Of a stretch of DNA of 64,000 nucleotides, positions 14,063-31,402 are shown piece by piece. Made by a program: the position numbers and the translations under genes. The notes below the pieces were generated by a model. The model saw only the letters and a list, made by a program, of their open reading frames with translations, made no database searches and was not told where the DNA came from. Position 1 is the stretch's first letter, and each line of letters begins with the position of its first letter. Source of the DNA: Escherichia coli (GTDB lineage Bacteria > Pseudomonadota > Gammaproteobacteria > Enterobacterales > Enterobacteriaceae); the NCBI RefSeq assembly GCF_003790525.1, contig NZ_CP033635.1, one strand, 5' to 3'.

Positions 14063-14085
14063 ACCATGATTAAAGGAAACGACTA

Positions 14086-15090
14086 ATGCCGGGAGCACCC
14101 TCATTTATTGCCCTGGACTGGGGAACGTCATCGCTTCGGGCATGGCGTTTTGGCGAATCACCAAATCCACAAGAAAAACGTGAATTCCCCTGGGGGATCA
14201 TGAAATTACCCTCCCAGGCAGCAACACGTGAGGACGCTTTCCACGATACGTTTTTACGTGTCTGCGGCGACTGGCTGGCACAAACCCCATGCCCGGTACT
14301 GGCTTGCGGCATGCTCGGCAGTGCGCAAGGGTGGCAACCAGCAGCTTATTTACCTTGCCCGGTCACTCTCGAGGGTCTGGCGAAGCAGTTGACGCCAGTT
14401 ATCCACCAGCAGCAGACAATGCTGCACATCATTCCTGGCGTGATTAAAGAAGGTGAAATGCCCGAAGTGATGCGTGGCGAAGAGACACAAATCTTCGGTG
14501 CTATCTCGATGGAACCGGCCCTGCAAAACGCGATCCATCAGGGTATGCCAGTGCTGATAGGCTTACCCGGCACACATGCGAAATGGGCAGTAGTTGAAAA
14601 CAACACCATTACCGATTTCCGAACCTTTATGACGGGCGAGTTATTTGATGTTTTATCCCGCCATTCGATTCTCGGTGCCACCATGCATCCTGGAGATGAA
14701 CCGCACTGGGATGCCTTCACCCACGGGCTGACAGCAGCACAAGAGCATCATCAGACCGGATTATTATCGACGCTGTTTTCGACCCGTTCGCGCCTGCTGA
14801 CCAGTAATCTTACGTCGTCCTCGCAGGGGGATTACCTTTCCGGATTACTGATAGGCCATGAATTATGCGGTCTGGCATCCAGTTTGCTACGTGATTTACC
14901 CGCCACAACACCGATCGCCTTAATCGGTAGCGCAAATCTGAACAGCCGCTATTCACAAGCATTCAGCCACGTTTTTCCCGACAGACAGATACACGCCATT
15001 CCTAATGCCACTGAACAGGGATTATGGCGAATCGCCCACGCTGCCGGGTTACTGTCCACCAACGCCAGGGAATGTACCCATGCCATTTAA
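14086..15090 (+). CDS. 2-dehydro-3-deoxygalactonokinase-like (DgoK-family) sugar-acid kinase
   Basis: Motifs IALDWGTSSLRAW, VMRGEETQIFGA, PGTHAKW, DFRTFMTGELF, LSGLLIG resemble DgoK; RBS aggaaa upstream. Confidence 0.7.
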   Translation: MPGAPSFIALDWGTSSLRAWRFGESPNPQEKREFPWGIMKLPSQAATREDAFHDTFLRVCGDWLAQTPCPVLACGMLGSAQGWQPAAYLPCPVTLEGLAKQLTPVIHQQQTMLHIIPGVIKEGEMPEVMRGEETQIFGAISMEPALQNAIHQGMPVLIGLPGTHAKWAVVENNTITDFRTFMTGELFDVLSRHSILGATMHPGDEPHWDAFTHGLTAAQEHHQTGLLSTLFSTRSRLLTSNLTSSSQGDYLSGLLIGHELCGLASSLLRDLPATTPIALIGSANLNSRYSQAFSHVFPDRQIHAIPNATEQGLWRIAHAAGLLSTNARECTHAI

Positions 15091-15709
15091 GACGCTTTTG
15101 CAAAAAACCGGGTTAGTCGCCATTTTACGCGGCGTGAAACCGGATGAGATTGTCGCCATCGGTGAAAAACTGTACGCCGCCGGATTCCGCCTGATTGAGA
15201 TTCCTATGAACTCGCCGGAGGCGTTGCAAAGTATCAGTTTACTGCGCGACGCCCTGCCTAAGGATTGCCTGGTCGGAGCCGGAACTGTGCTTTCGGTAGA
15301 GCAGGTGGTTGCGGTTAAAGAGGCTGGGGGCCAGATTATCGTGATGCCGCATTGCGATACTGCGGTGATCCGTCGCGCCCGTGCGCTGGGTATGTATTGT
15401 GCGCCTGGCGTCGCCACGCCCACCGAAGCCTTTGCTGCCATTGAACATGGTGCTAATGCCATCAAGCTGTTCCCGGCTGAACAAATTACGCCAGAAGTTA
15501 CCAAAGCCTGGCGTGCGGTTATTCCACAATCCGTTCCGATGTTACCGGTTGGCGGTATCACACCGGAAACCATGGCGCGTTATCTGAGCCACGGCGCAAA
15601 CGGCTTTGGCCTCGGTTCTGCGCTATATCACCCCGGCATGACGCCAGAGCAAGTCTATGAAAATGCAGTACTGTTTATGAACGCATGGAACAATTTAAAT
15701 AGCAACTAA
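15080..15709 (+). CDS. 2-dehydro-3-deoxy-6-phosphogalactonate (KDPGal/KDPG-type) aldolase, DgoA-like
   Basis: LVAILRGVKPDE...IEIPMNSP...GAGTVL...CAPGVATPTEAF...GANAIKLFPA...PVGGITPE; start at MPFKTLL overlaps the kinase stop by 11 nt. Confidence 0.7.
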   Translation: MPFKTLLQKTGLVAILRGVKPDEIVAIGEKLYAAGFRLIEIPMNSPEALQSISLLRDALPKDCLVGAGTVLSVEQVVAVKEAGGQIIVMPHCDTAVIRRARALGMYCAPGVATPTEAFAAIEHGANAIKLFPAEQITPEVTKAWRAVIPQSVPMLPVGGITPETMARYLSHGANGFGLGSALYHPGMTPEQVYENAVLFMNAWNNLNSN

Positions 15710-15733
15710 CTGATAAATAAGGATATAAAAGCA

Positions 15734-16708
15734 ATGATAAAACATCTTACCTTACCGAAAAAAATGGCTGCAATGGTACTTCTTGCAGGCGCTGCCCTCA
15801 GCATTGCGCCTGTACAGGCAGCCTCCTACCCAACCAAACAGATCGAGTTAGTCGTTCCCTACGCTGCCGGAGGCGGTACGGATCTGGTTGCCCGTGCCTT
15901 TGCTGATGCCGCCAAAAACCATTTACCCGTCAGCATCGGGGTTATCAATAAACCTGGCGGAGGCGGTGCTATCGGCCTGAGTGAAATCGCCGCTGCCCGC
16001 CCTGGCGGTTACAAAATTGGTTTAGGCACGGTTGAACTGACCACCCTTCCCAGCCTCGGAATGGTGCGTTTTAAAACCAGCGATTTTAAACCCATTGCCC
16101 GTCTAAACGCGGATCCGGCTGCTATCACCGTCCGTTCTGATGCGCCGTGGAATAGCTATGAAGAATTTATGACTTACGCCAAAGCGAATCCCGGAAAAGT
16201 ACGCATTGGTAACTCAGGCACCGGAGCTATCTGGCATCTGGCGGCAGCTGCACTGGAAGACAAAACGGGTGCGAAGTTTTCTCATGTCCCGTATGACGGC
16301 GCAGCCCCTGCCATTACAGGCCTGTTAGGCGGGCATATTGAAGCGGTTTCCGTAAGCCCAGGAGAAGTTATCAACCATGTGAAAGGCGGCAAGCTGAAGA
16401 CACTGGTAGTGATGGCGGATGAGCGAATGAAAACCATGCCTGACGTCCCGACGTTAAAAGAGAAAGGCGTTGATCTCTCCATCGGCACCTGGCGCGGCCT
16501 GATTGTGTCGCAAAAAACGCCGCAGGATGTGGTGGATGTTCTGGCAAAGGCAGCAAAAGAGACGGCTGAAGAGCCTGCATTCCAGGATGCACTGCAAAAG
16601 TTGAATCTCAACTATGCATGGCTTGACGCTGCCAGCTTCCAGACCCAAATCAGCGAACAGGAAAAGTACTTTGACGAGTTGCTGACTCGCCTGGGCCTGA
16701 AAAAATAA
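15734..16708 (+). CDS. Tripartite tricarboxylate transporter (TTT) periplasmic substrate-binding protein, TctC/Bug family
   Basis: 324 aa with signal peptide (MIKHLTLPKKMAAMVLLAGAALSIAPVQA); characteristic YPTKQIELVVPYAAGGGTDL. Confidence 0.75.
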   Translation: MIKHLTLPKKMAAMVLLAGAALSIAPVQAASYPTKQIELVVPYAAGGGTDLVARAFADAAKNHLPVSIGVINKPGGGGAIGLSEIAAARPGGYKIGLGTVELTTLPSLGMVRFKTSDFKPIARLNADPAAITVRSDAPWNSYEEFMTYAKANPGKVRIGNSGTGAIWHLAAAALEDKTGAKFSHVPYDGAAPAITGLLGGHIEAVSVSPGEVINHVKGGKLKTLVVMADERMKTMPDVPTLKEKGVDLSIGTWRGLIVSQKTPQDVVDVLAKAAKETAEEPAFQDALQKLNLNYAWLDAASFQTQISEQEKYFDELLTRLGLKK

Positions 16709-16721
16709 ACCTGAGGTACGG

Positions 16722-17231
16722 TTGATGAACACAAAACAGTCTGTTGCTCAACTCGCCGTACCGCACCGCAAGCGCCTTTCATCAACGATGGTGGTGGCGC
16801 TGTTACTTTGTGTGGTTGCTGGCGCGGTGATGATTAATGCCGCTGATTTTCCAGCAACTGCCATTGAAACGGATCCCGGTGCAAGTGCCTTCCCTACCTT
16901 CTATGCCTGTGCCCTGATTGTGCTCGCTGTCTTGCTGGTGATACGCGATCTTTTGCAGGCAAAACCAGCCTCTTGCGCCAACGCACAGGAAAAACCGGCA
17001 TTCAGGAAAACGGCAACAGGAATTGCGGCAACCGCGTTTTATATTGTGACGATGAGCTACTGCGGTTATCTCATTACTACTCCTGTTTTCCTCATCGTCA
17101 TTATGACGTTGATGGGCTACAGGCGATGGGTACTCACACCGGGTATTGCGCTGCTGTTAACGGCAATCCTCTGGTTGCTGTTTGTCGAAGCGTTACAGGT
17201 GCCATTGCCTGTCGGCACATTTTTCGAATAA
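16722..17231 (+). CDS. TTT small membrane subunit, TctB-like
   Basis: 169 aa, four predicted TM helices, immediately between TctC-like and TctA-like genes. Confidence 0.65.
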   Translation: MMNTKQSVAQLAVPHRKRLSSTMVVALLLCVVAGAVMINAADFPATAIETDPGASAFPTFYACALIVLAVLLVIRDLLQAKPASCANAQEKPAFRKTATGIAATAFYIVTMSYCGYLITTPVFLIVIMTLMGYRRWVLTPGIALLLTAILWLLFVEALQVPLPVGTFFE

Positions 17232-17243
17232 CAGGGGCCAGCA

Positions 17244-18734
17244 ATGTTTGAAAGTGAACTTTTAACTCAGGGTTTTTCGACATTACTCAATAATCCTCAG
17301 GCGCTGCTGTTTGCCACTTTTGGGGTGATGCTGGGTATTGTGATTGGCGCTTTGCCTGGTCTGACAGCGACCATGGGTGTGGCGATTTTGCTGCCTTTCA
17401 CCTACGGCATGGAGCCTGTTTCTGGCTTGTTGATGATTTGCGGCGTCTTTTTTGGTGGCGTCTACGGTGGTTCTATCACCGCAATTTTGCTCAAAATTCC
17501 CGGAACGCCTGCCGCCGCAGCCACCGCTATTGATGGTTATGAGCTGACGAAACAGGGAAAAGCAGGGCTGGCATTGAGTGCCGCCACGTTCTCTTCCTTT
17601 AGTGGCGGAACGCTCAGCATTATCGTGCTGATGTTTCTCTCTCCGGTACTTGCCAGTTGGGCGCTGAAATTTAGTGCCTCGGAGTCCTTCGCCCTGGCAA
17701 CCTTCGGACTGAGCATTATTGCCAGTATTTCCGGTGAGTCACTGATTAAAGGGCTGATTGCCGGGGTTGGCGGATTGCTGATCGCAACGATAGGCCTTGA
17801 TCCAATGGGCGGTTTTCCACGGTTTACAGGTGGATTTGTGGAGCTGATGAATGTGCCATTTATCCCGGTGATGATTGGTTTATTTGCTGCTTCAGAAGCA
17901 TTCCGCTCTATGGAGCAAAACCAGCAAATTCGTCAGGGGGCGAAGGTGGCTATCGGCAGTCTGTTACTGCCCTGGCAAACACTACGCCGCATTGCATTAA
18001 CCATTTTGCGCTCATCAGGATTAGGGGTTTTTATCGGCATGATCCCCGGTGCGGGGGCGGATATTGCAGCTTTTGTTGCCTATAACGAAACTCGTCGTTT
18101 CAGTAAGACACCAGAAAACTTTGGTAAGGGTGAAATTAAAGCTGTGGCCTCCTGTGAGGCAGGCGCGAATGGCTGCACCGGTGGCGCATTGTTACCTATG
18201 CTGACGCTGGGGATCCCTGGCGATGCGGTAACCGCCATCATGCTGGGCGCGTTAACGTTACAGGGAATGCAACCAGGCCCGCTGATGTTTACCGACCACG
18301 GCGATATGGTTTATACACTGTTTGTCGGCATGATCTTCTGTTACTTCATGCTACTAGTTCTTGGACTGCTCTCTTTGAAAGTCATCGGTAATGTGGTGAA
18401 AATTCCCGGCAATATTCTCACACCGATGATCCTCGCACTTTGTGTGGTCGGGACTTATGCGTTGAACAATAGCCTGTTTGATGTTGGCATTATGCTGATT
18501 GCAGGCGTGGTGGGCTATTTCATGCAGAAAGGAGGATATCCGGCATCACCCGTAGTGCTGGCATTGATTATGGGGCCAATGGCGGAAAGTAATTTTCGCC
18601 GTGCGCTGTCGCTTTCTGGTGGGTCACTCGACTTTCTGTATACCCGACCGATAACTCTGGCATTGCTGACTCTGGCAGCCTTTACGCTACTGACGCCAAT
18701 AATCCGCAAAATAATGCGTTTACGGCGTCAATAA
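17244..18734 (+). CDS. TTT large permease subunit, TctA-like
   Basis: 496 aa polytopic membrane protein with duplicated G-rich motifs (LPGLTATMGVAILLP / IPGAGADIAAFVAYNE). Confidence 0.75.
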   Translation: MFESELLTQGFSTLLNNPQALLFATFGVMLGIVIGALPGLTATMGVAILLPFTYGMEPVSGLLMICGVFFGGVYGGSITAILLKIPGTPAAAATAIDGYELTKQGKAGLALSAATFSSFSGGTLSIIVLMFLSPVLASWALKFSASESFALATFGLSIIASISGESLIKGLIAGVGGLLIATIGLDPMGGFPRFTGGFVELMNVPFIPVMIGLFAASEAFRSMEQNQQIRQGAKVAIGSLLLPWQTLRRIALTILRSSGLGVFIGMIPGAGADIAAFVAYNETRRFSKTPENFGKGEIKAVASCEAGANGCTGGALLPMLTLGIPGDAVTAIMLGALTLQGMQPGPLMFTDHGDMVYTLFVGMIFCYFMLLVLGLLSLKVIGNVVKIPGNILTPMILALCVVGTYALNNSLFDVGIMLIAGVVGYFMQKGGYPASPVVLALIMGPMAESNFRRALSLSGGSLDFLYTRPITLALLTLAAFTLLTPIIRKIMRLRRQ

Positions 18735-18741
18735 CTGATAT

Positions 18742-18769
18742 CGCTCCCCGAAGTTGGGGAGCGTTTTTT
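18742..18769 (+). terminator. Rho-independent terminator after the tct-like operon (overlaps the 3' end of udp)
   Basis: CGCTCCCC-GAAGTT-GGGGAGCG hairpin followed by T6. Confidence 0.65.
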
Positions 18770-19793: not shown

Positions 19794-20603
19794 ATGGCAA
19801 CAACACAACAATCTGGATTTGCACCTGCTGCATCGCCTCTCGCTTCGACCATCGTTCAGACTCCGGACGACGCGATTGTGGCGGGCTTCACCTCTATCCC
19901 TTCACAAGGGGATAACATGCCTGCTTACCATGCCAGACCAAGGCAAAGCGATGGCCCACTGCCAGTGGTCATTGTAGTGCAGGAAATTTTTGGCGTGCAT
20001 GAACATATCCGCGATATTTGTCGCCGTCTGGCGCTGGAGGGGTATCTGGCTATCGCACCTGAACTTTACTTCCGCGAAGGCGATCCGAATGATTTTGCCG
20101 ATATCCCTACGCTGCTTAGCGGTCTGGTAGCAAAAGTGCCTGACTCGCAGGTGCTGGCCGATCTCGATCATGTCGCCAGTTGGGCTTCCCGCAACGGCGG
20201 CGATGTTCATCGTTTAATGATCACCGGATTCTGCTGGGGTGGACGTATCACCTGGCTGTATGCCGCGCATAATCCACAACTGAAAGCAGCGGTGGCATGG
20301 TACGGCAAATTAACCGGCGATAAGACGCTGAATTCACCGAAACAACCTGTTGATATCGCAACCGATCTTAACGCGCCGGTTCTCGGCTTATATGGTGGTC
20401 AGGATAACAGCATTCCGCAAGAGAGTGTGGAAACGATGCGCCAGGCGCTGCGGGCAGCAAACGCGAAAGCAGAGATTATCGTGTACCCGGATGCAGGGCA
20501 TGCGTTCAACGCCGATTATCGTCCGAGCTATCATGCCGAGTCTGCGAAAGACGGCTGGCAGCGAATGTTGGAATGGTTTACACAGTATGGTGTTAAAAAG
20601 TAA
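19794..20603 (+). CDS. ysgA: Dienelactone hydrolase-family protein (carboxymethylenebutenolidase-like) YsgA/DlhH
   Basis: MATTQQSGFAPAASPLASTIVQTPDDAIV... alpha/beta hydrolase; RBS ggag before the chosen ATG. Confidence 0.85.
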   Translation: MATTQQSGFAPAASPLASTIVQTPDDAIVAGFTSIPSQGDNMPAYHARPRQSDGPLPVVIVVQEIFGVHEHIRDICRRLALEGYLAIAPELYFREGDPNDFADIPTLLSGLVAKVPDSQVLADLDHVASWASRNGGDVHRLMITGFCWGGRITWLYAAHNPQLKAAVAWYGKLTGDKTLNSPKQPVDIATDLNAPVLGLYGGQDNSIPQESVETMRQALRAANAKAEIIVYPDAGHAFNADYRPSYHAESAKDGWQRMLEWFTQYGVKK

Positions 20604-20669
20604 CGCCATAGTCGCTAAATCTGATGATTAAGCTCACACAATTTCAACGATTTTTTTAATCTCAAAACC

Positions 20670-20698
20670 ATACAGCATCAAAAAATTTGTTGCTGTAT
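20670..20698. promoter_or_regulatory. Perfect inverted repeat ATACAGCA-N13-TGCTGTAT, with a related direct-repeat copy (AAAAATTTcGTTGCTGT) ~70 bp downstream; candidate operator upstream of the accessory operon
   Basis: Read directly in the 256-bp ysgA / hydrolase intergenic region. Confidence 0.45.
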
Positions 20699-20859
20699 GC
20701 CACTCTTTGACTCCCTTCACATTCGTCATCACACCACCTGCTGAATGCAAAAATTTCGTTGCTGTGCGGCAAACTTTTTTCCTGTTTTGTGCCGCTTTTC
20801 TCCTGAATACTCGTTCTCAGAACAACTGGATCGTTTAAACATCAGACAGGAGATTTACC

Positions 20860-21528
20860 ATGACGCAATCCATTTTTCAGGCTCAACCCTTTGAATTACC
20901 TTTTGATCCGCGCACAACTGCACTGGTCATGATCGACATGCAGCGTGACTTTGTCGAAGCAGGGGGCTTCGGTGAGGCACTGGGCAATGATGTTTCACTG
21001 GTACGCACGGCTATCGCACCATGTACAGAGGTGCTGGCAGCCGCACGTCAAAAAGGAATTATGGTTATTCATACTCGTGAAGGCCATCGTGCAGACTTAA
21101 GCGACTGCCCGCCAGCCAAACTGACGCGCGGCGGAAAAACCTTTATTGGTGAACCAGGACCGATGGGACGCATTCTGGTCAGAGGTGAAGCAGGTCATGA
21201 CATCATTCCTGAACTGTACCCGGTGGCAGGCGAACCGGTGATTGATAAGCCTGGCAAAGGCGCGTTTTATCAAACCGACTTACATCTGATTTTGCAAAAC
21301 CACGGTATCAAGACGCTGATAGTTTGTGGTGTTACAACCGAAGTTTGCGTAACCACCACCGTGCGCGAAGCAAATGATCGTGGCTATGAATGCATTATCC
21401 CGGAAGATTGTGTCGGCTCCTATTTCCCGGAATTCCAGAAATACGCCCTCGAGATGATCAAAGCACAAGGTGCCATTTTCGGTTGGGTTACTGATTCCAA
21501 AGCCATTATTGCAGGCCTGGAAGGCTAA
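20860..21528 (+). CDS. Isochorismatase-family cysteine hydrolase (amidohydrolase of RutB / biuret-hydrolase / N-carbamoylsarcosine amidase type)
   Basis: 222 aa; ALVMIDMQRDF (Asp), conserved Lys, LIVCGVTTEVCV (nucleophile Cys); RBS aggag. Confidence 0.75.
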   Translation: MTQSIFQAQPFELPFDPRTTALVMIDMQRDFVEAGGFGEALGNDVSLVRTAIAPCTEVLAAARQKGIMVIHTREGHRADLSDCPPAKLTRGGKTFIGEPGPMGRILVRGEAGHDIIPELYPVAGEPVIDKPGKGAFYQTDLHLILQNHGIKTLIVCGVTTEVCVTTTVREANDRGYECIIPEDCVGSYFPEFQKYALEMIKAQGAIFGWVTDSKAIIAGLEG

Positions 21529-21533
21529 CACCG

Positions 21534-22394
21534 ATGGTACAGGTTACGCTTTGCGCATCGTCGTTGGGATATCTTTTCCCGCAGAATGAAACGCAAGATT
21601 TACGTCTACATAGCGCTTTTAAACATGCGGTAAATCTGTATTCAGACGCGGGAACATTCATCACTCTGTTGTGTGCGCAAACGTATCTGAATCTCCCTGA
21701 TGCAGCCAGAGTCTGGCTACCTGAATGTTGGGACTGGCGAAGAGAGATTGCCCATTCAGATCCCATTCAGTTAACCCCAGGCTTACTGCGGACACCTCGA
21801 TTTTGTGTGGCGCTCGAAAACGCAACGCTCTGGCAGTCGCCATTTGTGGGGGGAATGCTGACACTTGAGGCATTCCCTTTGGTTTTCCAGCACTACCCAA
21901 CGATGGCATCGCAACGGCTTTTATTTTGTCTGGAACATAACGTTCAAAGCACATTGCACCTGCCGGATAGTCTCACGCACCAGGGATTAGCGATTATGGA
22001 GCATCCAGATGCGCTGGAACGCCAGGTGCCACAACTGATCGGCTTTGGTAAAGGCTTAACGCCCGATGGAGATGACTATTTGTTGGGCTATCTGGCAGCA
22101 CTCTGGTTATGGCAACTCCCTGCACCACTTGCCGATCATCAATACCGGTTGCAGCAGGTAATTGATCAACATGCGCACAACACCACGGATATCAGTCGTC
22201 ATTATCTGGAGCGTGCGCTTCAGGGACATTTTTCAGAACCGATTTGCCAGTTACTCGCACAACTGGTTGGGAGTGCATCGGCAATGACAATCGCATCCTG
22301 TGCAGAACAGGTCATGCAATTTGGCGCAACGTCAGGAGTAGATTGCCTTGCAGGAATGCTGCATGGCTTTCGAACCCTGAACACCATAAATTGA
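21534..22394 (+). CDS. DUF2877-like protein (YlbF/AllH-like component of the FdrA module)
   Basis: 286 aa; assignment from family resemblance and position beside FdrA-like and DUF1116-like genes; the least secure assignment in the cluster. Confidence 0.5.
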   Translation: MVQVTLCASSLGYLFPQNETQDLRLHSAFKHAVNLYSDAGTFITLLCAQTYLNLPDAARVWLPECWDWRREIAHSDPIQLTPGLLRTPRFCVALENATLWQSPFVGGMLTLEAFPLVFQHYPTMASQRLLFCLEHNVQSTLHLPDSLTHQGLAIMEHPDALERQVPQLIGFGKGLTPDGDDYLLGYLAALWLWQLPAPLADHQYRLQQVIDQHAHNTTDISRHYLERALQGHFSEPICQLLAQLVGSASAMTIASCAEQVMQFGATSGVDCLAGMLHGFRTLNTIN

Positions 22395-22488
22395 TTTCAA
22401 CCTTTTCTCCCGTAGCCCGTTTATGGGGCTACACGGGGATGCTTTGCCCGAATTTTGCTATCGGGCGGAATGAAACAGGCGTAACAGC

Positions 22489-24048
22489 ATGAAAGTTAAA
22501 TATAAAGTTTTCAGTAATCTTTATCAGGACTCAGTTTCTCTGATGCAGATTTCCGCGCAAATCAGCAAGTTGCCCGGTATTCAACAGGCCTCGGTCGTCA
22601 TGGGAACACCCAATAATCTCGAGCAATTGAGCGATGCGGGTCTGGGTAACGAAATCAACGCCAGTCCCAATGATTTAGTGATTGCAGTCATGGGTGAAGA
22701 AGATATTTGCAATGAAGCACTGGTACTGGCCCAGCAACGTCTGACCAGCAAACCCGATGATGAAACGGATAGTGGCATTAAAACACCGGAAAAGGTCAGC
22801 CTGGAAATGGCACTGGAAGCCGAGCCCGAAGCCAACCTGGCACTCATTTCTGTACCGGGAGACTACGCCGCCGCCGAAGCAATTAAAGCGTTAAACCTCG
22901 GAATGAACGTGATGATGTTCAGCGATAACGTCAGTATCGTGCAGGAAAAATCCATCAAAACGCTTGCCCGAGAACGTCAGCGCATCGTAATGGGACCTGA
23001 CTGTGGAACCGCCATTGTTAACGGCATTCCGTTAGGCTTCGCTAATGTGGTGAAACGCGGAGCAATTGGTGTTATTGGCGCGTCAGGCACCGGGCTACAG
23101 GAAGTGACTTGCCGAATCGACCAGCTCGGAGCGGGTATTTCTCAGGCGTTGGGAACAGGCGGACATGATCTCAGTGAAGAGATTGGTGGAATATCGATGC
23201 TCTTCGCTTTAGATGCGCTGGCGCAAGACGATGAAACTCGCGTGATTGTGCTTATTTCAAAACCGCCTTCACCGATCGTTGCCCGGACTATTCTGGAGCG
23301 TGCCGAGGCTTGTGGAAAACCCGTGGTGGTGAATTTCCTCGGTGCGAATCCGCATGATCTGGCACGTCCCAATATCACCGCGGCCACCACACTTGCCAGC
23401 GCCGCAAATATCGCCGTGGCGTTACTGAATGATCAACCACTTCCGACTATCGAGACCGAAATTTCCTGCGACGATCTCACAATGTTACAAAACGCCTGCC
23501 AGCGCCTGCCAGCCCATCGCCAGGCGATACGCGGTGTTTTCGCCGGAGGAACCTTCTGCTACGAAGCGCAACTTATCTGCCAACAAAAGGGATTCAGCGC
23601 AGCCTCCAATACGCCAGTTGCGGGTAATCGTGCTCTGGCAAATATCTGGCAAAGCGAAGATCACACGTTGATCGATATGGGCGACGATGATTTCACCCGT
23701 GGCAAACCGCATCCAATGATCGACCCGACTCTGCGCAATCAACGTCTGCTCAACGAACTCAACGACTCACACACTGCCGTCGTGTTATTCGACCTGGTAC
23801 TTGGTTATGGCGCTTCCACGACGCCTGCCAGCGAATTACTGGACCAACTTTCACACATCGACATGAATAACGCACCGTTGCTGATTGCGCACGTTTGCGG
23901 AACGGAAGCTGATCCGCAAATACGCAGTCAGCAGATAAGCGCACTACAAAATGCAGGGGTCATCATCGCCAGCAGCAATGCACAGGCGGCGTTATGGGCC
24001 AGCACCGTTGCACAGACTCAGTTGCAGAAAAAGGGGCTAAACGCATGA
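22489..24048 (+). CDS. FdrA-like protein (succinyl-CoA synthetase alpha-like / acyl-CoA synthetase-like fold)
   Basis: 519 aa; MMFSDNV, VMGPDCGT, GVIGASGTG, HPMIDPTLRNQ motifs typical of FdrA/AllF family. Confidence 0.75.
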   Translation: MKVKYKVFSNLYQDSVSLMQISAQISKLPGIQQASVVMGTPNNLEQLSDAGLGNEINASPNDLVIAVMGEEDICNEALVLAQQRLTSKPDDETDSGIKTPEKVSLEMALEAEPEANLALISVPGDYAAAEAIKALNLGMNVMMFSDNVSIVQEKSIKTLARERQRIVMGPDCGTAIVNGIPLGFANVVKRGAIGVIGASGTGLQEVTCRIDQLGAGISQALGTGGHDLSEEIGGISMLFALDALAQDDETRVIVLISKPPSPIVARTILERAEACGKPVVVNFLGANPHDLARPNITAATTLASAANIAVALLNDQPLPTIETEISCDDLTMLQNACQRLPAHRQAIRGVFAGGTFCYEAQLICQQKGFSAASNTPVAGNRALANIWQSEDHTLIDMGDDDFTRGKPHPMIDPTLRNQRLLNELNDSHTAVVLFDLVLGYGASTTPASELLDQLSHIDMNNAPLLIAHVCGTEADPQIRSQQISALQNAGVIIASSNAQAALWASTVAQTQLQKKGLNA

Positions 24049-25469
24049 ATACCTTATTTAATCAGCCTTTGAAGGTTGTGAACGCGGGACTACACAGTTT
24101 TGCTGACAATATTCAACATGCCGGGGGAAGCGCAATTGCACTCAACTGGCAGCCACCAGCACAAGGCGATATTGACGCTGGATTGGATCTGGCATCGTTG
24201 CTACGTCATCCCCTGGTAGAAAATGCCAACCAAATCGCCATGACACGTTATCTCGAAGCACAGCCCGTGCTGGTGGATGTCATGCTCGCTAAAGAGGCCA
24301 TTCCAGAAATGGCTGAACAAAAACGTATTTTGCACTCTGGCCCGCCGATTGCCTGGGAAGAGATGTGTGGTCCGGTAAAAGGGGCGATTATTGGTGCCAT
24401 GCTGTACGAAGGTTGGGCCACCAGCCAGCAAGACGCTGAAAACCAAATAAACGCAGGCGAAATCGACCTTGCCCCTTGTCATCATTATCACGCGGTTGGC
24501 CCAATGGCAGGCATCATCAGCCCGTCGATGCCGTTATGGGTGGTAGAAAACAAAACCAACGGCCACCGTACTTTTAGCAATTTCAATGAAGGTCTGGGTA
24601 AGGTTCTCCGTTTTGGCGCCAATAACGATGAAGTTCTCAATCGTCTGGCCTGGATGCGCGATGAACTGGCGCCGGCAATGAAAGCAGCAATCGCACAACA
24701 CGGCGAGCTGGAACTCAAGCCATTAATGGCGCAGGCGCTGCATATGGGGGATGAAGTTCATAACCGCAATGCTGCCGCTACCGGTTTGCTGATTAAGCGC
24801 CTGCTCCCGGCATTGCTGGCCTGCTCTCTTCCACAGGAACATATCCAGCGCGTCGTGGCATTTATCACCGGTAACGATCACTTCTTCCTCAATCTTTCGA
24901 TGGCCGCCTGTAAAGCAATGATGGATGCCGCCGCCAATGTACCGTTCAGTTCAATGGTTACGGTGATGGCGCGTAACGGGGTGAATTTTGGTATTCGGCT
25001 TTCCGGTACTGGCGATCGCTGGTTCCAGGCTCCTGCCAATGCCGTTGAAGGTCTGTTCTTCCCCGGATTTGGCGTCGACGATGCCGCTGCTGACCTGGGT
25101 GATAGCGCAATTACTGAAACCGCAGGTGTGGGTGGCTTCGCGATGGCGTCGTCTCCGGCGATCGTCAAATTTGTGGGAGGCACCCCTGCCGATGCCACCA
25201 ATAACAGCCGTCGGATGCAAGCCGTCACCCTCGGCGGTAACCCCGCATTTACACTTCCAGCCCTCAATTTTGCCCCCACCGCAGCAGGGATTGATGCGCG
25301 TAAAGTGACCGATCGCGGCATTTTACCGGTCATCAATACGGGTATCGCCCACAAACAAGCGGGGGTCGGGCAAATTGGTGCCGGGATCACCACTGCGCCG
25401 ATGGCCTGTTTTGTCGCCGCTGTACGTGCACTGGCGGAGATCGTCGCAAAGGAGAACCATCATGGTTAA
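24045..25469 (+). CDS. DUF1116-like protein (YlbE/AllG-like)
   Basis: ~474 aa; start ATG overlaps the FdrA-like stop (ATGA), so translationally coupled. Confidence 0.6.
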   Translation: MNTLFNQPLKVVNAGLHSFADNIQHAGGSAIALNWQPPAQGDIDAGLDLASLLRHPLVENANQIAMTRYLEAQPVLVDVMLAKEAIPEMAEQKRILHSGPPIAWEEMCGPVKGAIIGAMLYEGWATSQQDAENQINAGEIDLAPCHHYHAVGPMAGIISPSMPLWVVENKTNGHRTFSNFNEGLGKVLRFGANNDEVLNRLAWMRDELAPAMKAAIAQHGELELKPLMAQALHMGDEVHNRNAAATGLLIKRLLPALLACSLPQEHIQRVVAFITGNDHFFLNLSMAACKAMMDAAANVPFSSMVTVMARNGVNFGIRLSGTGDRWFQAPANAVEGLFFPGFGVDDAAADLGDSAITETAGVGGFAMASSPAIVKFVGGTPADATNNSRRMQAVTLGGNPAFTLPALNFAPTAAGIDARKVTDRGILPVINTGIAHKQAGVGQIGAGITTAPMACFVAAVRALAEIVAKENHHG

Positions 25470-26418
25470 GCCACTGGCTGTCGTCGCGGTTGGCGGCAAT
25501 GCGCTCATTCAGGACGAGCAACGCAATAGTATTCCCGATCAATATGTTGCAGTGATGGAAAGCGTGCAGCATATCGTTGATATGGTTGAAGCCGGATGGG
25601 ACCTGGTGCTAACCCACGGTAATGGCCCGCAGGTGGGCTTTATTCTGCGCCGCTCTGAACTCGCCAGTAACGAAGTTTCTCCGGTTCCACTTGATTACGC
25701 CGTGGGTGATACACAAGGTGCAATTGGCTACATGTTCCAGAAAGCACTGCATAACGAATTGGCTCGCCGTGGCATAAACAAACCGGTAATTGCCCTGGTG
25801 ACACAAACGCGAGTCAGCCCACATGACGATGCTTTCGCCAGCCCCAGTAAACCAATTGGCGCGTTTCTCGATGAAGCAACGGCCCAACAACGCCAACAAC
25901 AACTCGGCTGGACGCTGATGGAGGACGCCGGGCGTGGTTGGCGGCGTACAGTTCCCTCTCCTGCCCCACTGGAAGTTATTGAGCACGACACCATCGCTCA
26001 CCTGGTGCGCCAGGGATATCTGGTTATTGCCTGCGGCGGCGGCGGTATTCCGGTGGTGCGAGACGGACAACAACTGAAAGGTGTAGAAGCCGTGATCGAT
26101 AAAGATCTGGCCTCCGCGCTGCTCGCCAGTCAGTTAGGCGCAGATCTGCTGGTGATCCCCACCGGTGTAGAAAAAGTGGCGATTAACTTTGGTACACCAC
26201 AACAACAGTGGCTCGACGCTATCAGCGTTGCCGAAGCGCAAACGCTGTTGCGGGAAGGTCAGTTTGGTGTCGGCAGTATGCAACCCAAAGTGGAAGCCAT
26301 TGTTGATTTCATCAATGCCAGCCAGCAACAAGGCAAACAGGCCAGCGGCCTGATTACTTCACCGCAAACCATAAAAGCAGCCCTGGCGCATCAGAGCGGT
26401 ACATGGATAACCCTTTAA
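25462..26418 (+). CDS. Carbamate kinase
   Basis: MVKPLAVVAVGGNALIQ... amino-acid-kinase fold, THGNGPQVG, IACGGGGIPVV; RBS aggag; overlaps the upstream gene by 8 nt. Confidence 0.8.
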   Translation: MVKPLAVVAVGGNALIQDEQRNSIPDQYVAVMESVQHIVDMVEAGWDLVLTHGNGPQVGFILRRSELASNEVSPVPLDYAVGDTQGAIGYMFQKALHNELARRGINKPVIALVTQTRVSPHDDAFASPSKPIGAFLDEATAQQRQQQLGWTLMEDAGRGWRRTVPSPAPLEVIEHDTIAHLVRQGYLVIACGGGGIPVVRDGQQLKGVEAVIDKDLASALLASQLGADLLVIPTGVEKVAINFGTPQQQWLDAISVAEAQTLLREGQFGVGSMQPKVEAIVDFINASQQQGKQASGLITSPQTIKAALAHQSGTWITL

Positions 26419-26434
26419 TTCTCTGGAGAACACA

Positions 26435-26824
26435 ATGACTACAACGCTTTTAGCCGTTAACGGAACGCTGATGCGCGGCCTGGAACTCAACCCAAATATG
26501 CAAAAAGCGGGCGGTATTTTTGTCCGTGAAGACCGAACTGACGCCCATTACCGGTTGTGGAGTATTAATGATCGCCATCCGGGAATGATTCGCGTGAATG
26601 AAGGAGGAACACACGTCGACGTAGAAATTTGGCAATTACCGCTGGCCAGTTTTGCCGCTCTGTTAATGAGCGAACCCGCTGGGCTGGCAATTGGCAAAAT
26701 CAAACTTGCCGATGGTAGCGAAGTGCTGGGCGTACTGGCAGAAAACTGGCTGACCGAAGGCCAACGGGAAATTACAGAACTGGGTAGCTGGCGCAAATAC
26801 ACCGGGCATTTTCATACTGTGTAA
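26435..26824 (+). CDS. Gamma-glutamylcyclotransferase-like (AIG2/GGCT fold) protein
   Basis: 129 aa; N-terminal AVNGTLMRG resembles the YGSLM-type GGCT motif. Confidence 0.55.
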   Translation: MTTTLLAVNGTLMRGLELNPNMQKAGGIFVREDRTDAHYRLWSINDRHPGMIRVNEGGTHVDVEIWQLPLASFAALLMSEPAGLAIGKIKLADGSEVLGVLAENWLTEGQREITELGSWRKYTGHFHTV

Positions 26825-26849
26825 CGCGCATTTATAAAGGGAACATACT

Positions 26850-28073
26850 ATGCGTAAAAAAGAAGAGAATCTGAATACGGCATCAGGATTGCGTATTGCC
26901 ATGATTTTGCTGGGTATTGCCGTCACACCTGTGCTGTTGTCATCCTCAAGCCTCGGCAATCAACTTTCCAGCGGCAGTTTAATTAGCGTCGTATTGTTAG
27001 GCGGCGTCATTCTGACCTTACTTTCAGCCATCACCATTAGCGTGGGAGAAAAAGCCCGCCTACCAACGTATGGCATTGTGAAATATTCGTTTGGCGAAAA
27101 AGGGGCCATCGCCATTAACATTTTGATGGCGATAAGTCTGTTCGGCTGGATTGCCGTTACCGCCAATATGTTTGGTCATTCGGTACATGACTTACTGGCT
27201 CAACATGGACTGGAAGTTCCACTGGCACTGTTAGTGGCGGCTGGCTGTGTCATTTTTGTCGCCTCTACGGCATTTGGCTTTGCCGTTCTGGGAAAAATTG
27301 CCCAGGTTGCCGTGCCGGTTATCGCGCTGGTGCTGTGTTACATCCTCTATGTGGCAACCCATACCGAAGTGGCAGTACCAGCGGCGATTGTGGAGATGAA
27401 TACAGGTGTCGCCGTTTCCACCGTTGTTGGCACCATTATTGTGCTGGTTGCCACACTGCCTGATTTCGGTAGTTTTGTGCATAACCGCAAACATGCGCTG
27501 ATTGCCGCAGGCGTGACGTTTCTGGTTGCCTACCCTCTGCTCTACTGGGCGGGTGCAACGCCGAGCGCCATTAGTGGTCAGGGATCTTTACTGGGTGCGA
27601 TGGCGGTATTCGGTGCGGTTCTGCCTGCGGCGCTGTTGTTGATTTTCGCCTGCGTCACCGGTAACGCGGGCAATATGTTCCAGGGCACGCTGGTGGTTTC
27701 CACACTGCTTACCCGCTTTCCCAAATGGCAGATTACCGTGGCGCTGGGTATCCTTTCCGCCATCGTAGGCAGTATGGATATTATGGCGTGGTTTATTCCG
27801 TTTCTGCTGTTCCTGGGTATCGCCACGCCACCCGTTGCCGGAATTTATATCGCTGACTTTTTCTTTTATCGCCGTAATGGCTATCAAGAGTCAGTGTTAG
27901 CCCAGGAGTCACAGATTAAAGTGCTGACATTCGCAGCATGGATCATAGGCGCAGCGGTTGGCTTTATGACCGTAAAAGGCTTATTCACCCTGACGACGAT
28001 CCCTTCGGTAGACTCGATTCTGGTGGCATGTATCGCTTATGCGATTCTCAGTCGGGCAAGTCAACACCGCTAA
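26850..28073 (+). CDS. NCS1-family nucleobase/cytosine-type permease (CodB-like)
   Basis: 407 aa, ~12 TM helices, overall similarity to purine-cytosine permeases. Confidence 0.7.
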   Translation: MRKKEENLNTASGLRIAMILLGIAVTPVLLSSSSLGNQLSSGSLISVVLLGGVILTLLSAITISVGEKARLPTYGIVKYSFGEKGAIAINILMAISLFGWIAVTANMFGHSVHDLLAQHGLEVPLALLVAAGCVIFVASTAFGFAVLGKIAQVAVPVIALVLCYILYVATHTEVAVPAAIVEMNTGVAVSTVVGTIIVLVATLPDFGSFVHNRKHALIAAGVTFLVAYPLLYWAGATPSAISGQGSLLGAMAVFGAVLPAALLLIFACVTGNAGNMFQGTLVVSTLLTRFPKWQITVALGILSAIVGSMDIMAWFIPFLLFLGIATPPVAGIYIADFFFYRRNGYQESVLAQESQIKVLTFAAWIIGAAVGFMTVKGLFTLTTIPSVDSILVACIAYAILSRASQHR

Positions 28074-28150
28074 TTCCTGGGTATACTCAGGCAATGATTA
28101 CGGCTGAATCTGGAGAGATTCAGCCACTTTACCACTGACCAGGAAGCCTT

Positions 28151-29047
28151 ATGTTCATCTCAGACGAAACGCTTCGTGTTATTCATCTGGTCGCCAGACA
28201 CCAGAGCATTACCACCGCAGCCGAGCAGTTAAATAAAGTCCCTTCCGCCATCAGTTACACCATCAAGAAAGCGGAAGAGAGCCTGGGCGTTGAACTGTTC
28301 ATTCGTAAGGGACGCTATATTGAATTATCGCCAGCGGGAAGTTACTTCATCGAACATAGCAAAACTATTCTTGGCGACCTGGAAGCATTAAAGCGCAACA
28401 CAGTGCTGATTCACGATGGTATTGAGCGTGAACTGACAATTGCGGTAAACAATATTATTCCTGGTGATTTGCTGGTGGCATTTATTCGAGATTTTGAACG
28501 GCAATTCACATCAACAACACTGACGGTAGATCTTGAGGTATACAACGGCTGCTGGGATGCGCTGTACAGTAAGCGTGCCGATCTGGTCTACGGTGCTCCT
28601 CATGCAGTGCCAAGCAGTGAAGGCATCATTAGCGAACCGGTCGGACAAATGGAATGGGATTTTGTCGTCAGCCCACTCCACCCACTGGCAGCGAAGCGGC
28701 ATCCATTAGAAAACAGTGAATTGCGTCATTATCCAGCGGTTTGTATCCGCGATACCTCCGTTAACTTCCCCCCGATGCAAGCCTGGTTGTTGGAAGGACA
28801 AAAACCCATTTTTGTTCCTGACTTCGCTACGGCAATCGCCTTAATAGAACAAAACGTCGGTATTGGTTATATTCCACATCATCTGGCATTGCCGTTATTG
28901 AACAGCGGTAAATTGCTTAAAAAGCCAATGCGCGAACATAAACACGCCACCAAGTTATTTCTTGCCGCTCGTTCCGATGGTATGGGCAAAGCCTGTCAGT
29001 GGTGCATAGAATATTTAAGAAATCCGCAATTAATTTTCTGTTCCTGA
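28151..29047 (+). CDS. LysR-type transcriptional regulator
   Basis: N-terminal HTH (LRVIHLVARHQSITTAAEQLNKVPSAISYTIKKAEESLG) plus substrate-binding domain. Confidence 0.8.
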   Translation: MFISDETLRVIHLVARHQSITTAAEQLNKVPSAISYTIKKAEESLGVELFIRKGRYIELSPAGSYFIEHSKTILGDLEALKRNTVLIHDGIERELTIAVNNIIPGDLLVAFIRDFERQFTSTTLTVDLEVYNGCWDALYSKRADLVYGAPHAVPSSEGIISEPVGQMEWDFVVSPLHPLAAKRHPLENSELRHYPAVCIRDTSVNFPPMQAWLLEGQKPIFVPDFATAIALIEQNVGIGYIPHHLALPLLNSGKLLKKPMREHKHATKLFLAARSDGMGKACQWCIEYLRNPQLIFCS

Positions 29048-29140
29048 AGATCCACATCATACCTGGCATACATAGCAAAATGGCTTCCGGTGTTGGAAGC
29101 CATTATTGTGCTGCAATTTACAATGACTCGTTAATACTCA

Positions 29141-31402
29141 TCATCCCCGACGCAAATTCTGCGCCGCCTGCACCATGTTCGCCAGTGCCGCGCGGGTTTC
29201 TGGCCAGCCGCGCGTTTTCAGGCCACAGTCCGGGTTGACCCACAGACGCTCTGCCGGAATGCGTTTTGCCGCTTTCTTCAGCAAGGCTTCAATCCATTCC
29301 ACGCTCGGTACGTTTGGCGAGTGAATGTCATAGACGCCAGGACCGATTTCATTTGGATAATCAAACTCTTCGAACGACTCCAGCAACTCCATGTCGGAAC
29401 GCGAGGTTTCGATGGTGATGACGTCTGCGTCCAGCGCCGCAATCGAATCCATGATGTCGTTGAACTCGCAGTAACACATGTGAGTGTGGATTTGTGTGTC
29501 ATCTTTCGCCACAGCGGCGTTGATACGGAAAGCCTCCACGCCCCACTGGAGATAGGCATCCCAGTCGCTGCGACGCAGTGGTAAACCTTCGCGCAATGCC
29601 GGTTCGTCAATCTGAATGATGCCAATTCCAGCGGCTTCCAGGTCCGCGACTTCATCACGCAGCGCCAGCGCAATTTGTTTGGCGATGGTTTCACGGCTGA
29701 CATCTTCACGCGGGAACGACCAGCAGAGAATAGTCACCGGGCCGGTCAACATCCCTTTCACCGGTTTATCAGTCAGGGATTGCGCATATTTTGCCCACTC
29801 CACGGTAATCGGTGCCGGGCGGCTAACGTCACCAATAACAATCGGTGGCTTCACGCAGCGGGAACCGTAGCTCTGTACCCAACCGTTTTGCGTAAAGACA
29901 AAGCCATCCAGATGCTCGCCAAAGTATTCCACCATGTCATTACGCTCGGCCTCGCCATGTACCAGCACATCCAGTCCCAAACGTTCCTGCTCAACAATGG
30001 CCTGCTTGATATGTTCCGCAATGCCTGTGCGGTAGTTGTTGGCGTCGAGATTACCCTTTTTGAAATCCAGACGCAGGGTACGAATCTCCGTGGTTTGCGG
30101 GAAAGAACCAATCGTGGTGGTCGGCCATGCTGGGAGTTTAAAACGCGCACGCTGGGCTTCAGCACGCACTTCATAGACATTCGCACGCTGACTGTCCTGA
30201 GCGGTGATCGCCGCCAGACGCTTTTCTACTGCCGGATTATGTACACGAGTAGAGTGACGACGCGCCTGAATCGGAGCGCTCCACGCTGCCAGAGCTGCCG
30301 TATCACCACTGTTCAACGCATCGCGCAGCAATGCCAGTTCATGACATTTTTGCAGGGCGAAGGCAAACCAGCTTTTCACTTCTGCATCAAGACGTGTTTC
30401 CACACTCAGGTCAATGGGACTGTGCAGCAGTGAGCAGGAAGATGCCACCCACAAATCACGTTTGCCGACAATGTCCTTAATTTGCGCATATTTCTCGGTA
30501 AGATCGGCGCGCCAGACGTTACGACCATTGATAAGACCCGCAGACAGCAGCCAGTCAGAAGGCAGACGCTTGTGCAGTTCAGCAACGTCATCTTTACCAT
30601 GTACAAGATCGACATGCAGACCCTGAACAGGCAGCGCAGTAATCGTGTCGAGATTTGGTGTTACGCCTTCAAAATAGGTGGTCAGCAGCAGTTTCACCTG
30701 TCCCTGGAGCGCGTCGTAAGCGGGTTTGTATGCGTCCAGCCACGCCTGCGGCAGTTCCAGTACCAGCGCGGGTTCATCAATCTGTACCCACTCGATGCCG
30801 CGTTTCGCCAGTTCTGCCAGCACTTGCTGATAAACCGGCAGAATGTCGTTCAGCAGGCTCAGGCGATCAAACTGTTCACCTTTCACTTTACCCAGCCACA
30901 GGTAGGTAACTGGCCCCAGCAGCACAGGTTTCACCTTGTGGCCCAGCGCCAGCGCCTCGTCCACTTCCTCCAGCAGCTGCGTCCAGGTCAGTTTGAACTG
31001 TTGGCCTTTAACGAACTCCGGCACCATGTAGTGATAGTTGGTGTTAAACCATTTGGTCATTTCCGCTGCCGCCGCAGGTTCGCCAGTCGGTGCACGTCCA
31101 CGACCAATACGGAACAGGGTGTCGATATCTACCGAACCATCGTTGTTCTGGTGACGCGCCGGAACATTACCCAGCAGCAGACTGGTGGTCAGTACATGAT
31201 CGTACCAGGCAAAATCGCCCACCGGCAGCAGGTCGATACCCGCTTGCTTTTGTTGCTCCCAGTGACGAGCACGTAATTCACGCCCTACCGCCAGCAGTTC
31301 TTCACGCGTGGAGTTCCCCGCCCAATAACTCTCTTGCGCTTTTTTCAGCTCGCGACGCAGGCCAACGCGAGGGAAACCGAGGGTGTGATTAAGAATTGTC
31401 AT
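29141..31402 (-). CDS. metE: Cobalamin-independent methionine synthase MetE
   Basis: 753 aa, [29 protein letters not shown]... Confidence 0.95.

Follow-up and report, generated by a model that had tools for sequence, protein, structure and literature searches.

An accessory FdrA-type gene cassette of Escherichia coli with a proposed role in triuret catabolism

Oxalurate is cleaved by AllFGH, which was purified as a three-subunit enzyme (PMC11326118) and converts oxalurate and Pi to carbamoyl phosphate and oxamate, acting with a dedicated carbamate kinase (PMC11326118, PMC9843812). Escherichia coli K-12 possesses two modules encoding these protein families, allF(fdrA)-allG(ylbE)-allH(ylbF)-allK(ybcF) and the uncharacterised yahE-yahF-yahG-(yahH)-yahI, the latter encoding DUF2877, FdrA, DUF1116, and carbamate kinase proteins in this order. 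Another module of this type was located at nt 21534–26418 of a 64,000-nt stretch of E. coli DNA (assembly GCF_003790525.1, contig NZ_CP033635.1), referred to here as the window. From gene content and by analogy, we propose, at slightly better than an even chance, that a horizontally mobile cassette for the catabolism of triuret is built around its four genes, those for the DUF2877, FdrA-like, DUF1116, and carbamate kinase proteins, and that triuret would be degraded via carbamoyl phosphate to ammonia and ATP.

Triuret, H2N-CO-NH-CO-NH-CO-NH2, is an oxidation product of urate and an impurity of urea fertiliser. The TrtA enzyme of Herbaspirillum has been shown biochemically to convert triuret to 1-carboxybiuret and ammonia, and the spontaneous decarboxylation of carboxybiuret has a half-life of about 20 min (PMC7948467). 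In Herbaspirillum and Rhizobium, degradation follows the hydrolytic pathway TrtA-(TrtB)-BiuH-AtzF (PMC7948467). The window cassette resembled this pathway in the type of its first enzyme and, by prediction, in the starting compound and in carboxybiuret, but it lacked BiuH, TrtB, and an amidase-type AtzF, and phosphorolysis with a gain of ATP is predicted for its later steps, where the known pathway uses hydrolysis only.

The four-gene core and its relation to the K-12 modules

The four core genes were all on the plus strand, in the order given by the original prediction for this DNA:

21534–22394, plus strand: DUF2877 / AllH-like subunit (RefSeq annotation; orthologues match Pfam PF11392 AllH)
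22489–24048, plus strand: FdrA / AllF-like subunit with a succinyl-CoA-synthetase-alpha-like fold (NCBIfam PRK06091 FdrA, 496.4, cut-off 433)
24045–25469, plus strand: DUF1116 / AllG-like subunit (RefSeq name; open reading frame check)
25462–26418, plus strand: catabolic carbamate kinase (NCBIfam PRK12352, 376.7, cut-off 266; TIGR00746 arcC, 364.4, cut-off 358.25)

The genes for the FdrA/AllF, DUF1116/AllG, and DUF2877/AllH families occurred together in the window, their orthologues matched Pfam AllH, AllF_N/Ligase_CoA, and AllG, and a dedicated carbamate kinase gene adjoined them; these features assign the module to the AllFGH type. The window is chromosomal, and its bases 21000–27000 were 100% identical to E. 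coli SMS-3-5 and many other strains. For comparison with other bacteria, one genome per species was scanned, relatives were found in 315 species, and the best 80 loci (98–63% DUF1116 identity) were examined; component counts given below refer to the 63 of those species loci with complete flanks.

As had been predicted, the stop codon of the FdrA-like gene and the start codon of the DUF1116 gene shared an ATGA at 24045–24048, and the DUF1116 and carbamate kinase genes overlapped by 8 nt (25462–25469), while the DUF2877 and FdrA-like genes were separated by a gap of 94 nt (22395–22488). Among related loci, the FdrA to DUF1116 junction was overlapping in 32 of 76 and no longer than 15 nt in nearly all, and the DUF1116 to carbamate kinase junction was overlapping in 46 of 70. 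The two overlaps fit co-translation of a three-subunit complex with carbamate kinase. Within the DUF1116 family (762 clusters at 50% identity, E ≤ 1e-30), two representatives of about 1007–1023 aa, P0123 and P0127, were full-length FdrA-DUF1116 (AllF-AllG) fusion proteins; several other representatives of ~700–1090 aa had DUF1116 at the C-terminus. Since FdrA-DUF1116 fusions exist and the published AllFGH has three subunits, the complex of module proteins suggested earlier is plausible. In the succinyl-CoA-synthetase superfamily, acyl transfer to phosphate is the first half-reaction; thus, the succinyl-CoA-synthetase-alpha-like nature of FdrA fits the phosphorolytic chemistry proposed below.

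The module had been described as a second copy with a permuted gene order. Since K-12 already has allFGHK and yahEFGI, it is the third one, an accessory paralogue in E. coli: at a coverage of at least 80%, allFGHK was present in 5407, yahEFGI in 5001, and the window module in 1554 (29%) of 5426 complete E. coli genomes. The allantoin-region order on which that description relied (fdrA, ylbE, ylbF, ybcF) agreed with K-12, and the window order does differ from allFGH-allK, but it is not novel, being identical to that of yahE-yahF-yahG-(yahH)-yahI. An open reading frame search found no other FdrA module elsewhere in the window, and no all genes were found near the window cassette, allFGHK being present separately.

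In pairwise alignments, the window proteins shared 23, 42, 49, and 41% identity with AllH, AllF, AllG, and AllK, respectively, far below the >90% identity that would have marked the module as the all locus itself, and they were about as distant from these as from YahE, YahF, YahG, and YahI (27, 43, 46, and 49%). The cassette DUF1116 proteins formed a separate clade with a minimum pairwise identity of 56% and a median of 68%, compared with 43–49% to YahG and 44–52% to AllG. Thus, as had been argued, the module did not arise by recent duplication of the all locus, and the identities of 23–49% together with the separate clade do not support orthology to the oxalurate-acting AllF, AllG, and AllH. 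A substrate different from that of the all locus, raised earlier as a possibility, is very likely given the gene context.

The module shares with AllFGH/AllK (PMC11326118, PMC9843812) the three subunit families, an adjacent and translationally coupled catabolic carbamate kinase, and the predicted chemistry, in which an N-carbamoyl compound is phosphorolysed to carbamoyl phosphate and ATP is then formed. It differs in gene order, in being accessory (29% of genomes) rather than core, in its linkage to genes for a TrtA-type hydrolase, an AH_C protein, and an NCS1 permease instead of allantoin genes, and in its predicted substrate, carboxybiuret, allophanate, or biuret versus oxalurate. The yah module has the same gene order and similarly tight junctions, but it is near-core, its neighbours are YahD (ankyrin) and YahJ (amidohydrolase), and it lacks genes for TrtA-like and AH_C proteins; neither the hydrolase nor the AH_C gene was found in the neighbourhood of either K-12 module. 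In Avibacterium, which includes poultry pathogens, a Yah-type FdrA/DUF1116 pair (67% to YahG) was observed directly upstream of a TrtA-linked cassette (L051:84-3051 and L052:80-3048).

The same three families plus a carbamate kinase could also mean that the window encodes a second oxamic transcarbamylase, that is, a redundant oxalurate-degrading AllFGH-AllK, as assumed by current annotations and by a study of nitrifiers in which such genes are read as oxalurate catabolism (PMC12625717). This is improbable in view of the identities and the separate clade described above, of the presence of allFGHK in nearly all E. coli genomes already, and of the gene context, no allantoin-pathway gene being found in or near the cassette at any locus while linkage to TrtA or AtzD was constant.

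A conserved cassette with a TrtA-type hydrolase and an AtzD variant

The four genes, treated as a unit in the original prediction, actually lay inside a conserved cassette of seven to eight genes, and the flanking genes hold most of the functional information. In the window, eight proteins are encoded on one strand in the order hydrolase, DUF2877, FdrA-like, DUF1116, carbamate kinase, AH_C, NCS1 permease, and LysR, the additional genes being:

20860–21528, plus strand: isochorismatase-family cysteine hydrolase of the TrtA (triuret hydrolase) type (structure-database and NCBIfam matches, residues)
26435–26824, plus strand: AH_C protein, homologous to the C-terminal domain of allophanate hydrolase but encoded alone (100% over 129 aa to c4763 of CFT073, PDB 5C5Z)
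26850–28073, plus strand: NCS1-family permease annotated as 'cytosine permease' (NCBIfam CodB, 146, below the cut-off of 326; orthologues match Pfam PF02133)
28151–29047, plus strand: LysR-type regulator, PunR/AllS-like (NCBIfam PunR, 286.7, cut-off 345, and AllS, 214.3, cut-off 372, both below)

Compared with solved structures, the hydrolase matched Herbaspirillum TrtA (6XIX/6XJ4/6XJE) with 270 bits, followed by BiuH with 234–237 and, far behind, RutB with 105; its identity was 58.7% to TrtA and 53.5% to BiuH. Six positions discriminate between TrtA and BiuH, F35/Y, N41/Y, A134/S, E160/D, Y187/T, and I205/V (Tassoulas et al., PMC7948467), and the window hydrolase possessed the TrtA residue at all six (F35, N41, A134, E160, Y187, and I205) and the BiuH residue at none. 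In the alignment with 6XIX, the catalytic triad D24/K129/C162 and the residues contacting the substrate (E72, K132, and Q202) were retained. The predicted reaction is thus triuret to 1-carboxybiuret and NH3. All 75 cassette-linked homologues were closer to TrtA than to BiuH; the full TrtA pattern was observed in 65, and seven more differed solely by A134S, a substitution not deleterious in TrtA (PMC7948467). Two other identities were rejected, that of BiuH (NCBIfam 279.8 bits, cut-off 370; no BiuH-type discriminators) and that of RutB (111.9 bits, far below the cut-off of 377.95; no rut genes in the cassette).

The least probable of the readings considered is a Rut-like pyrimidine degradation, suggested for the same genes as region GR 29 of avian pathogenic E. 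coli (APEC) strain BEN2908 on the basis of weak similarity to RutB and CodB (PMC12928451), in which the hydrolase would be a RutB analogue and the permease would import cytosine or uracil. The RutB score also lay far below the TrtA and BiuH matches, the CodB score did not reach its cut-off, and there was no RutA or other Rut gene; neither allantoin nor Rut genes were found alongside the cassette in the window or in the examined loci.

DUF1116 homologues with 72–88% identity were found in Enterobacterales, Burkholderiales, Neisseriales, Vibrionales, and Psychrobacter, and the order isochorismatase, AllH, AllF, AllG, carbamate kinase, AH_C, and NCS1 recurred in Paraburkholderia, Photobacterium, Psychrobacter, and Silvimonas. 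The best 80 loci extended to alphaproteobacteria, Mycobacterium, Nonomuraea, Acidobacteria, Verrucomicrobia, and Nitrospirae. The components were distributed among the complete loci as follows:

FdrA-like protein: 63/63
TrtA-like cysteine hydrolase: 62/63
Carbamate kinase: 61/63
AH_C protein: 59/63
DUF2877 protein: 50/63
LysR regulator: 45/63, upstream or downstream of the cassette
NCS1 permease: 44/63

The sole complete locus devoid of a TrtA-like gene was that on a plasmid contig of Klebsiella michiganensis (L020), which had a twin (L022). In both, a gene for cyanuric acid amidohydrolase AtzD (NF052395, 538.5 bits, cut-off 360) and an NCS2 permease gene lay directly upstream of DUF2877-FdrA-DUF1116-carbamate kinase-LysR; the sister cassette spans L020:1453-11531 and L089:4054-14133, with a membrane protein gene listed ahead of AtzD. 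The DUF1116 proteins of this variant were nested in the same clade, with 79–81% identity. The product of AtzD is also carboxybiuret, as cited in PMC7948467. The strongest argument for the proposed substrate comes from this exchange: TrtA and AtzD are unrelated, yield the same product, and precede the same core, which therefore would consume carboxybiuret or a direct derivative of it. Like the known cyanuric acid pathway, in which AtzD precedes AtzEGH or BiuH and finally AtzF, the variant starts with AtzD giving carboxybiuret. Its AtzD gene, however, leads into those for DUF2877, FdrA, DUF1116, and carbamate kinase and not into those for AtzE/G/H, BiuH, or AtzF, and the window itself has a TrtA-type enzyme instead of AtzD. 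The AtzD variant was observed on 50 plasmids in nine genera, Citrobacter, Klebsiella, Enterobacter, Leclercia, Raoultella, E. coli (Escherichia), Aeromonas, Shewanella, and Serratia, 47 copies having at least 99% and three having 95–99% identity; one copy was flanked by IS26 on an IncC/IncR plasmid.

The proposed route and competing substrates

In the route suggested by these data, triuret would be imported by the NCS1 permease, and the TrtA-type hydrolase would remove one amide nitrogen, giving 1-carboxybiuret and NH3. The AllH/AllF/AllG-like complex may then convert carboxybiuret and Pi to carbamoyl phosphate and allophanate, and a second round, from allophanate to carbamoyl phosphate and carbamate, would be possible. 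Carbamate kinase would form ATP and carbamate from carbamoyl phosphate and ADP, a reaction general to its family, and carbamate decays to NH3 and CO2. The AH_C protein would serve as a scaffold or act beside the kinase step, its target being an N-carboxy or carbamate intermediate that is unstable, and the LysR protein would regulate the operon. By this route, a urease-negative bacterium would obtain poly-ureide nitrogen together with ATP by substrate-level phosphorylation. Phosphorolysis of carboxybiuret is proposed because this compound (H2N-CO-NH-CO-NH-COO-) has the N-carbamoyl structure of oxalurate and is one atom longer.

Two published observations bear on this. Those comammox contigs on which allFGHK adjoins trtA/biuH have no gene for the carboxybiuret decarboxylase TrtB; the authors treat allFGHK and trtA/biuH as separate pathways (PMC12625717), and the pattern is consistent with carboxybiuret phosphorolysis. 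Literature searches for a link of carboxybiuret or triuret to carbamate kinase in E. coli returned only this nitrifier study, which reads oxalurate catabolism. In Biolog PM3 plates with 'biuret' as the nitrogen source, E. coli Nissle 1917 grows and K-12 does not, for which the authors gave no genetic explanation (PMC7924626), and commercial biuret contains about 1 mol% triuret (PMC7948467). Nissle 1917 possesses the full cassette (ECOLIN_RS22025-22060), its hydrolase and AH_C accessions being identical to those of SMS-3-5, and BLAST of the ysgA-metE region showed the cassette to be absent from K-12. Human urine has been found to contain triuret, which forms from urate on oxidation by peroxynitrite (PMC7948467); this fits the association of the cassette with extraintestinal pathogenic E. 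coli (ExPEC) and APEC, an association uncorrected for sampling bias.

The AH_C protein also matched the allophanate hydrolase C-domains 4GYR, 4ISS, and 5I8I. Fusion of AH_C to the C-terminus of carbamate kinase was found in all seven Mycobacterium loci, in a Rhodobacterales metagenome-assembled genome, and in Acidobacteria and Verrucomicrobia, which ties AH_C to the kinase step; the fusions were at L075:9410-10774, L077, L078, L079, L083–L086, L063, and L074. AH_C may decarboxylate N-carboxy intermediates of low stability, or it may be a scaffold. Its resemblance to the C-domain of allophanate hydrolase underlies another reading, suggested for c4763 in a crystal-structure paper as relayed in PMC7558591, in which urea or allophanate would be used in the urinary tract with AH_C replacing the function of urease or allophanate hydrolase. 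We consider this very improbable: the cassette has no urea carboxylase, the NCBIfam allophanate hydrolase model was matched only over its last ~125 positions (472–595 of 600; 104.7 bits, cut-off 487), and the TrtA-like hydrolase and the AtzD variant would be left unexplained. Neither an amidase-signature domain nor an amidase gene was found in the cassette, which thus does not qualify as encoding an allophanate hydrolase (AtzF / DUR1,2).

The short lifetime of carboxybiuret brings in biuret as the transferase substrate, with the cassette and first step unchanged. Biuret would arise by spontaneous or AH_C-catalysed decarboxylation and be converted with Pi to carbamoyl phosphate and urea, the latter being excreted or passed to urease in other hosts. 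The Biolog well in which Nissle 1917 grows is labelled biuret, TrtA, AH_C, and the permease form a sub-module in L049 and L066, and the C-domain of allophanate hydrolase was reportedly proposed by Fan et al. in 2013 to act on N-carboxy compounds. Phosphorolysis of biuret is nonetheless unlikely, although it stands foremost among the alternatives: half the nitrogen would be wasted in urease-negative E. coli, biuret lacks the carboxylate of oxalurate, the AtzD variant has no AH_C gene, and the kinase-AH_C fusions point to the kinase step and not to a step following TrtA.

Several points weigh against the triuret route via carboxybiuret. The positions discriminating TrtA from BiuH are consensus positions at which single mutations did not switch the specificity (PMC7948467), and a match at them is therefore not proof of triuret specificity. 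The substrate of the transferase is assigned from context and analogy only. Nissle 1917 and K-12 are one strain pair differing in many genes, a correlation and not proof, and the Biolog substrate is nominally biuret, which is barely hydrolysed by Herbaspirillum TrtA (PMC7948467). Since the cassette has no amidase-type allophanate hydrolase, allophanate would lack an evident outlet in E. coli unless it is phosphorolysed. The AH_C gene is not part of the AtzD variant; in the alphaproteobacterial L049 and L066 it occurs together with those for TrtA and the permease, and elsewhere it is fused to that for carbamate kinase. Finally, in 13 of the 63 loci, no gene for DUF2877/AllH, which is needed for E. 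coli AllFGH activity, was detected in the vicinity of the cassette; in all seven Mycobacterium loci and some of Serratia and Caballeronia, it was found by neither phmmer, the family hidden Markov model, nor tblastn. The missing DUF2877 protein may be encoded elsewhere or be dispensable. The loci in question were L012, L018, L029, L033, L035, L053, and L075–L085.

Some of these points leave room for a substrate other than triuret, the hydrolase and the transferase acting on another acyl-urea or ureide, from the host or the environment (an oxidation product of urate, pyrimidine, or hydantoin, for instance), and the resemblance to TrtA being misleading. The identity to characterised TrtA is 54–62% only, single discriminator mutations caused no switch, the regulator resembles the purine-related PunR and AllS, and NCS1 permeases carry hydantoins, allantoin, and nucleobases. 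This, too, is unlikely, by a shade more than the use of biuret, because the TrtA match extends to 6/6 discriminators and all substrate-contacting residues and because the replacement by AtzD points specifically to carboxybiuret chemistry.

Beyond the triuret route itself, we tentatively suggest, at somewhat under an even chance, that the AllFGH family is a broad class of phosphorolytic ureide carbamoyltransferases in which the present clade would be a carboxybiuret (possibly allophanate):phosphate carbamoyltransferase, opening a route from triuret and, with AtzD, from cyanuric acid that yields ATP and needs neither urease nor amidase.

The NCS1 permease is the predicted substrate importer and the LysR protein the presumed cassette regulator. 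Loci devoid of the NCS1 gene had an unrelated polytopic membrane protein instead; a membrane protein of ~530 aa holds the permease position in most such cassettes. The polytopic proteins of L052:3061-4542 and L053:10804-12402 (about 490–530 aa) and L020:1453-2688 (411 aa) had 10–12 predicted helices, and searches of L020:1453-2688 and L052:3061-4542 against Pfam and NCBIfam gave no match. These proteins are probably alternative transporters.

The structured gap, the island, and its distribution

The 94-nt gap ahead of the FdrA-like gene contained the GTAGCCC-N7-GGGCTAC motif that had been noted as a possible RNA structure without a T-tract. The motif occurred once in the window, against zero occurrences expected from 100 shuffles. 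The gap (22395–22488) folded at -32.9 kcal/mol (z = -2.55; 2 of 200 shuffles folded as well), forming two hairpins:

22409–22437, plus strand: hairpin 1, containing GTAGCCC-N7-GGGCTAC (22412–22432) and extending through a bulge, no T-tract (fold)
22443–22469, plus strand: hairpin 2, UUUGCCCGA-N9-UCGGGCGGA (RNAalifold consensus)

The notion of an RNA structure thus held, but the hairpin first noticed is one of two and the other is the better conserved. In the RNAalifold consensus of 11 Enterobacterales sequences, hairpin 2 had eight pairs, three of them with covariation on both sides; its base, CTTTGCC...GGCAG, was kept across Enterobacterales, and it was followed by a conserved ACAGG(C/T)-TAA ribosome-site region ahead of the start codon of the FdrA-like gene. 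Hairpin 1 was absent from the consensus, the alignment at this place being poor, and its sequence varied between genera although its position was kept in most Enterobacterales orthologues. Most of these orthologues had a gap of 77–111 nt with hairpins at the same two places, while the gap was short or absent in the four distant loci outside Enterobacterales. No Rfam family matched the gap, and consensus scans for terminators and promoters across the island yielded no more sites than in shuffles and none in the gap. Two sub-threshold Rfam matches, to the fluoride riboswitch (20.2 bits, gathering 34, E = 0.053; 24501–24576, minus strand, inside the DUF1116 gene) and to Mu-gpT-DE, were taken as chance. 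The gap is a real, lineage-specific structured spacer, and it may govern how much of the downstream proteins is made relative to those encoded upstream.

The cassette lies in an island with the following further features:

20593–29144: accessory insertion of ~8.55 kb between ysgA and metE (BLAST homology with K-12 ends at 20592 and resumes at 29145)
20669–20699: near-perfect 31-nt palindrome CATACAGCATCAAA / TTTGTTGCTGTATG upstream of the first cassette gene (repeat search)
29079–29104: 10-bp perfect inverted repeat AATGGCTTCC / GGAAGCCATT between the convergent LysR and metE genes (repeat search)

The insertion takes the place of ~60 bp in K-12, in which the final codons of ysgA and metE lie, and carries no integrase or transposase gene. 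At 20581–20603 and 29141–29160, the ysgA and metE ends are altered relative to K-12, and the shared K-12 terminator hairpin is replaced. The palindrome is a candidate operator of the cassette LysR regulator; its half-site GTTGCTGT was observed again ~70 nt downstream, near 20757–20764, and the motif was found in E. coli loci only, not in those of other genera. The inverted repeat is probably a bidirectional terminator.

The island is already known. The cassette genes belong to the 16-kb tkt1 island of B2 ExPEC and APEC (APEC O1), which occupies the same metE-ysgA site (PMC3349570), the genes are those of GR 29 of BEN2908, for which pyrimidine breakdown was suggested (PMC12928451), and the AH_C protein is identical to c4763. 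The window has a short form devoid of the tkt1, phosphotransferase system (PTS), isomerase, and RpiR genes of the tkt1 island, the LysR gene (end at 29047) being followed directly by metE (29141–31402, minus strand), and Nissle 1917 has the long form. Earlier work gave no function beyond suggestions of peptide, pyrimidine, or urea metabolism, and the function proposed here appears to be new. The cassette is common in extraintestinal and poultry E. coli. An allele ~94.6% identical was found on 82 conjugative plasmids, 78 of E. coli and four of Klebsiella, many of the records being from poultry; on the IncFIB/IncFIC plasmid pAPEC-O2-MS1657-1 from chicken heart (L088:7001-15179), the cassette adjoins iron ABC transporter genes. 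Elsewhere in the window, at about 13079–18767, another accessory islet was observed between rmuC and udp, which adjoin in K-12. The islet, which Nissle 1917 also has, contains genes for 2-dehydro-3-deoxygalactonokinase, KDPGal aldolase, a tripartite tricarboxylate transporter (Bug/TctB/TctA), and an IclR regulator.

If the proposed function is true, the cassette would add a new activity to the only known transcarbamylase family other than those of aspartate (ATCase) and ornithine (OTCase) transcarbamylases, and would newly allow its hosts to draw ATP and all the nitrogen from poly-ureides with neither urease nor allophanate hydrolase. Annotations reading every cluster of FdrA, DUF1116, and DUF2877 genes as oxalurate catabolism would be corrected. 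It would also suggest why the AtzD sister cassette circulates on IncC/IncR and multidrug-resistance plasmids of hospital Enterobacterales. For E. coli, it would give a testable function to genes long regarded as specific to ExPEC or uropathogenic E. coli (UPEC), namely the tkt1 island and c4763, which are also carried on ColV plasmids of APEC, and would link the ExPEC/APEC island to growth on a product of urate oxidation that bacteria would meet in urine, inflamed tissue, or bird excreta.

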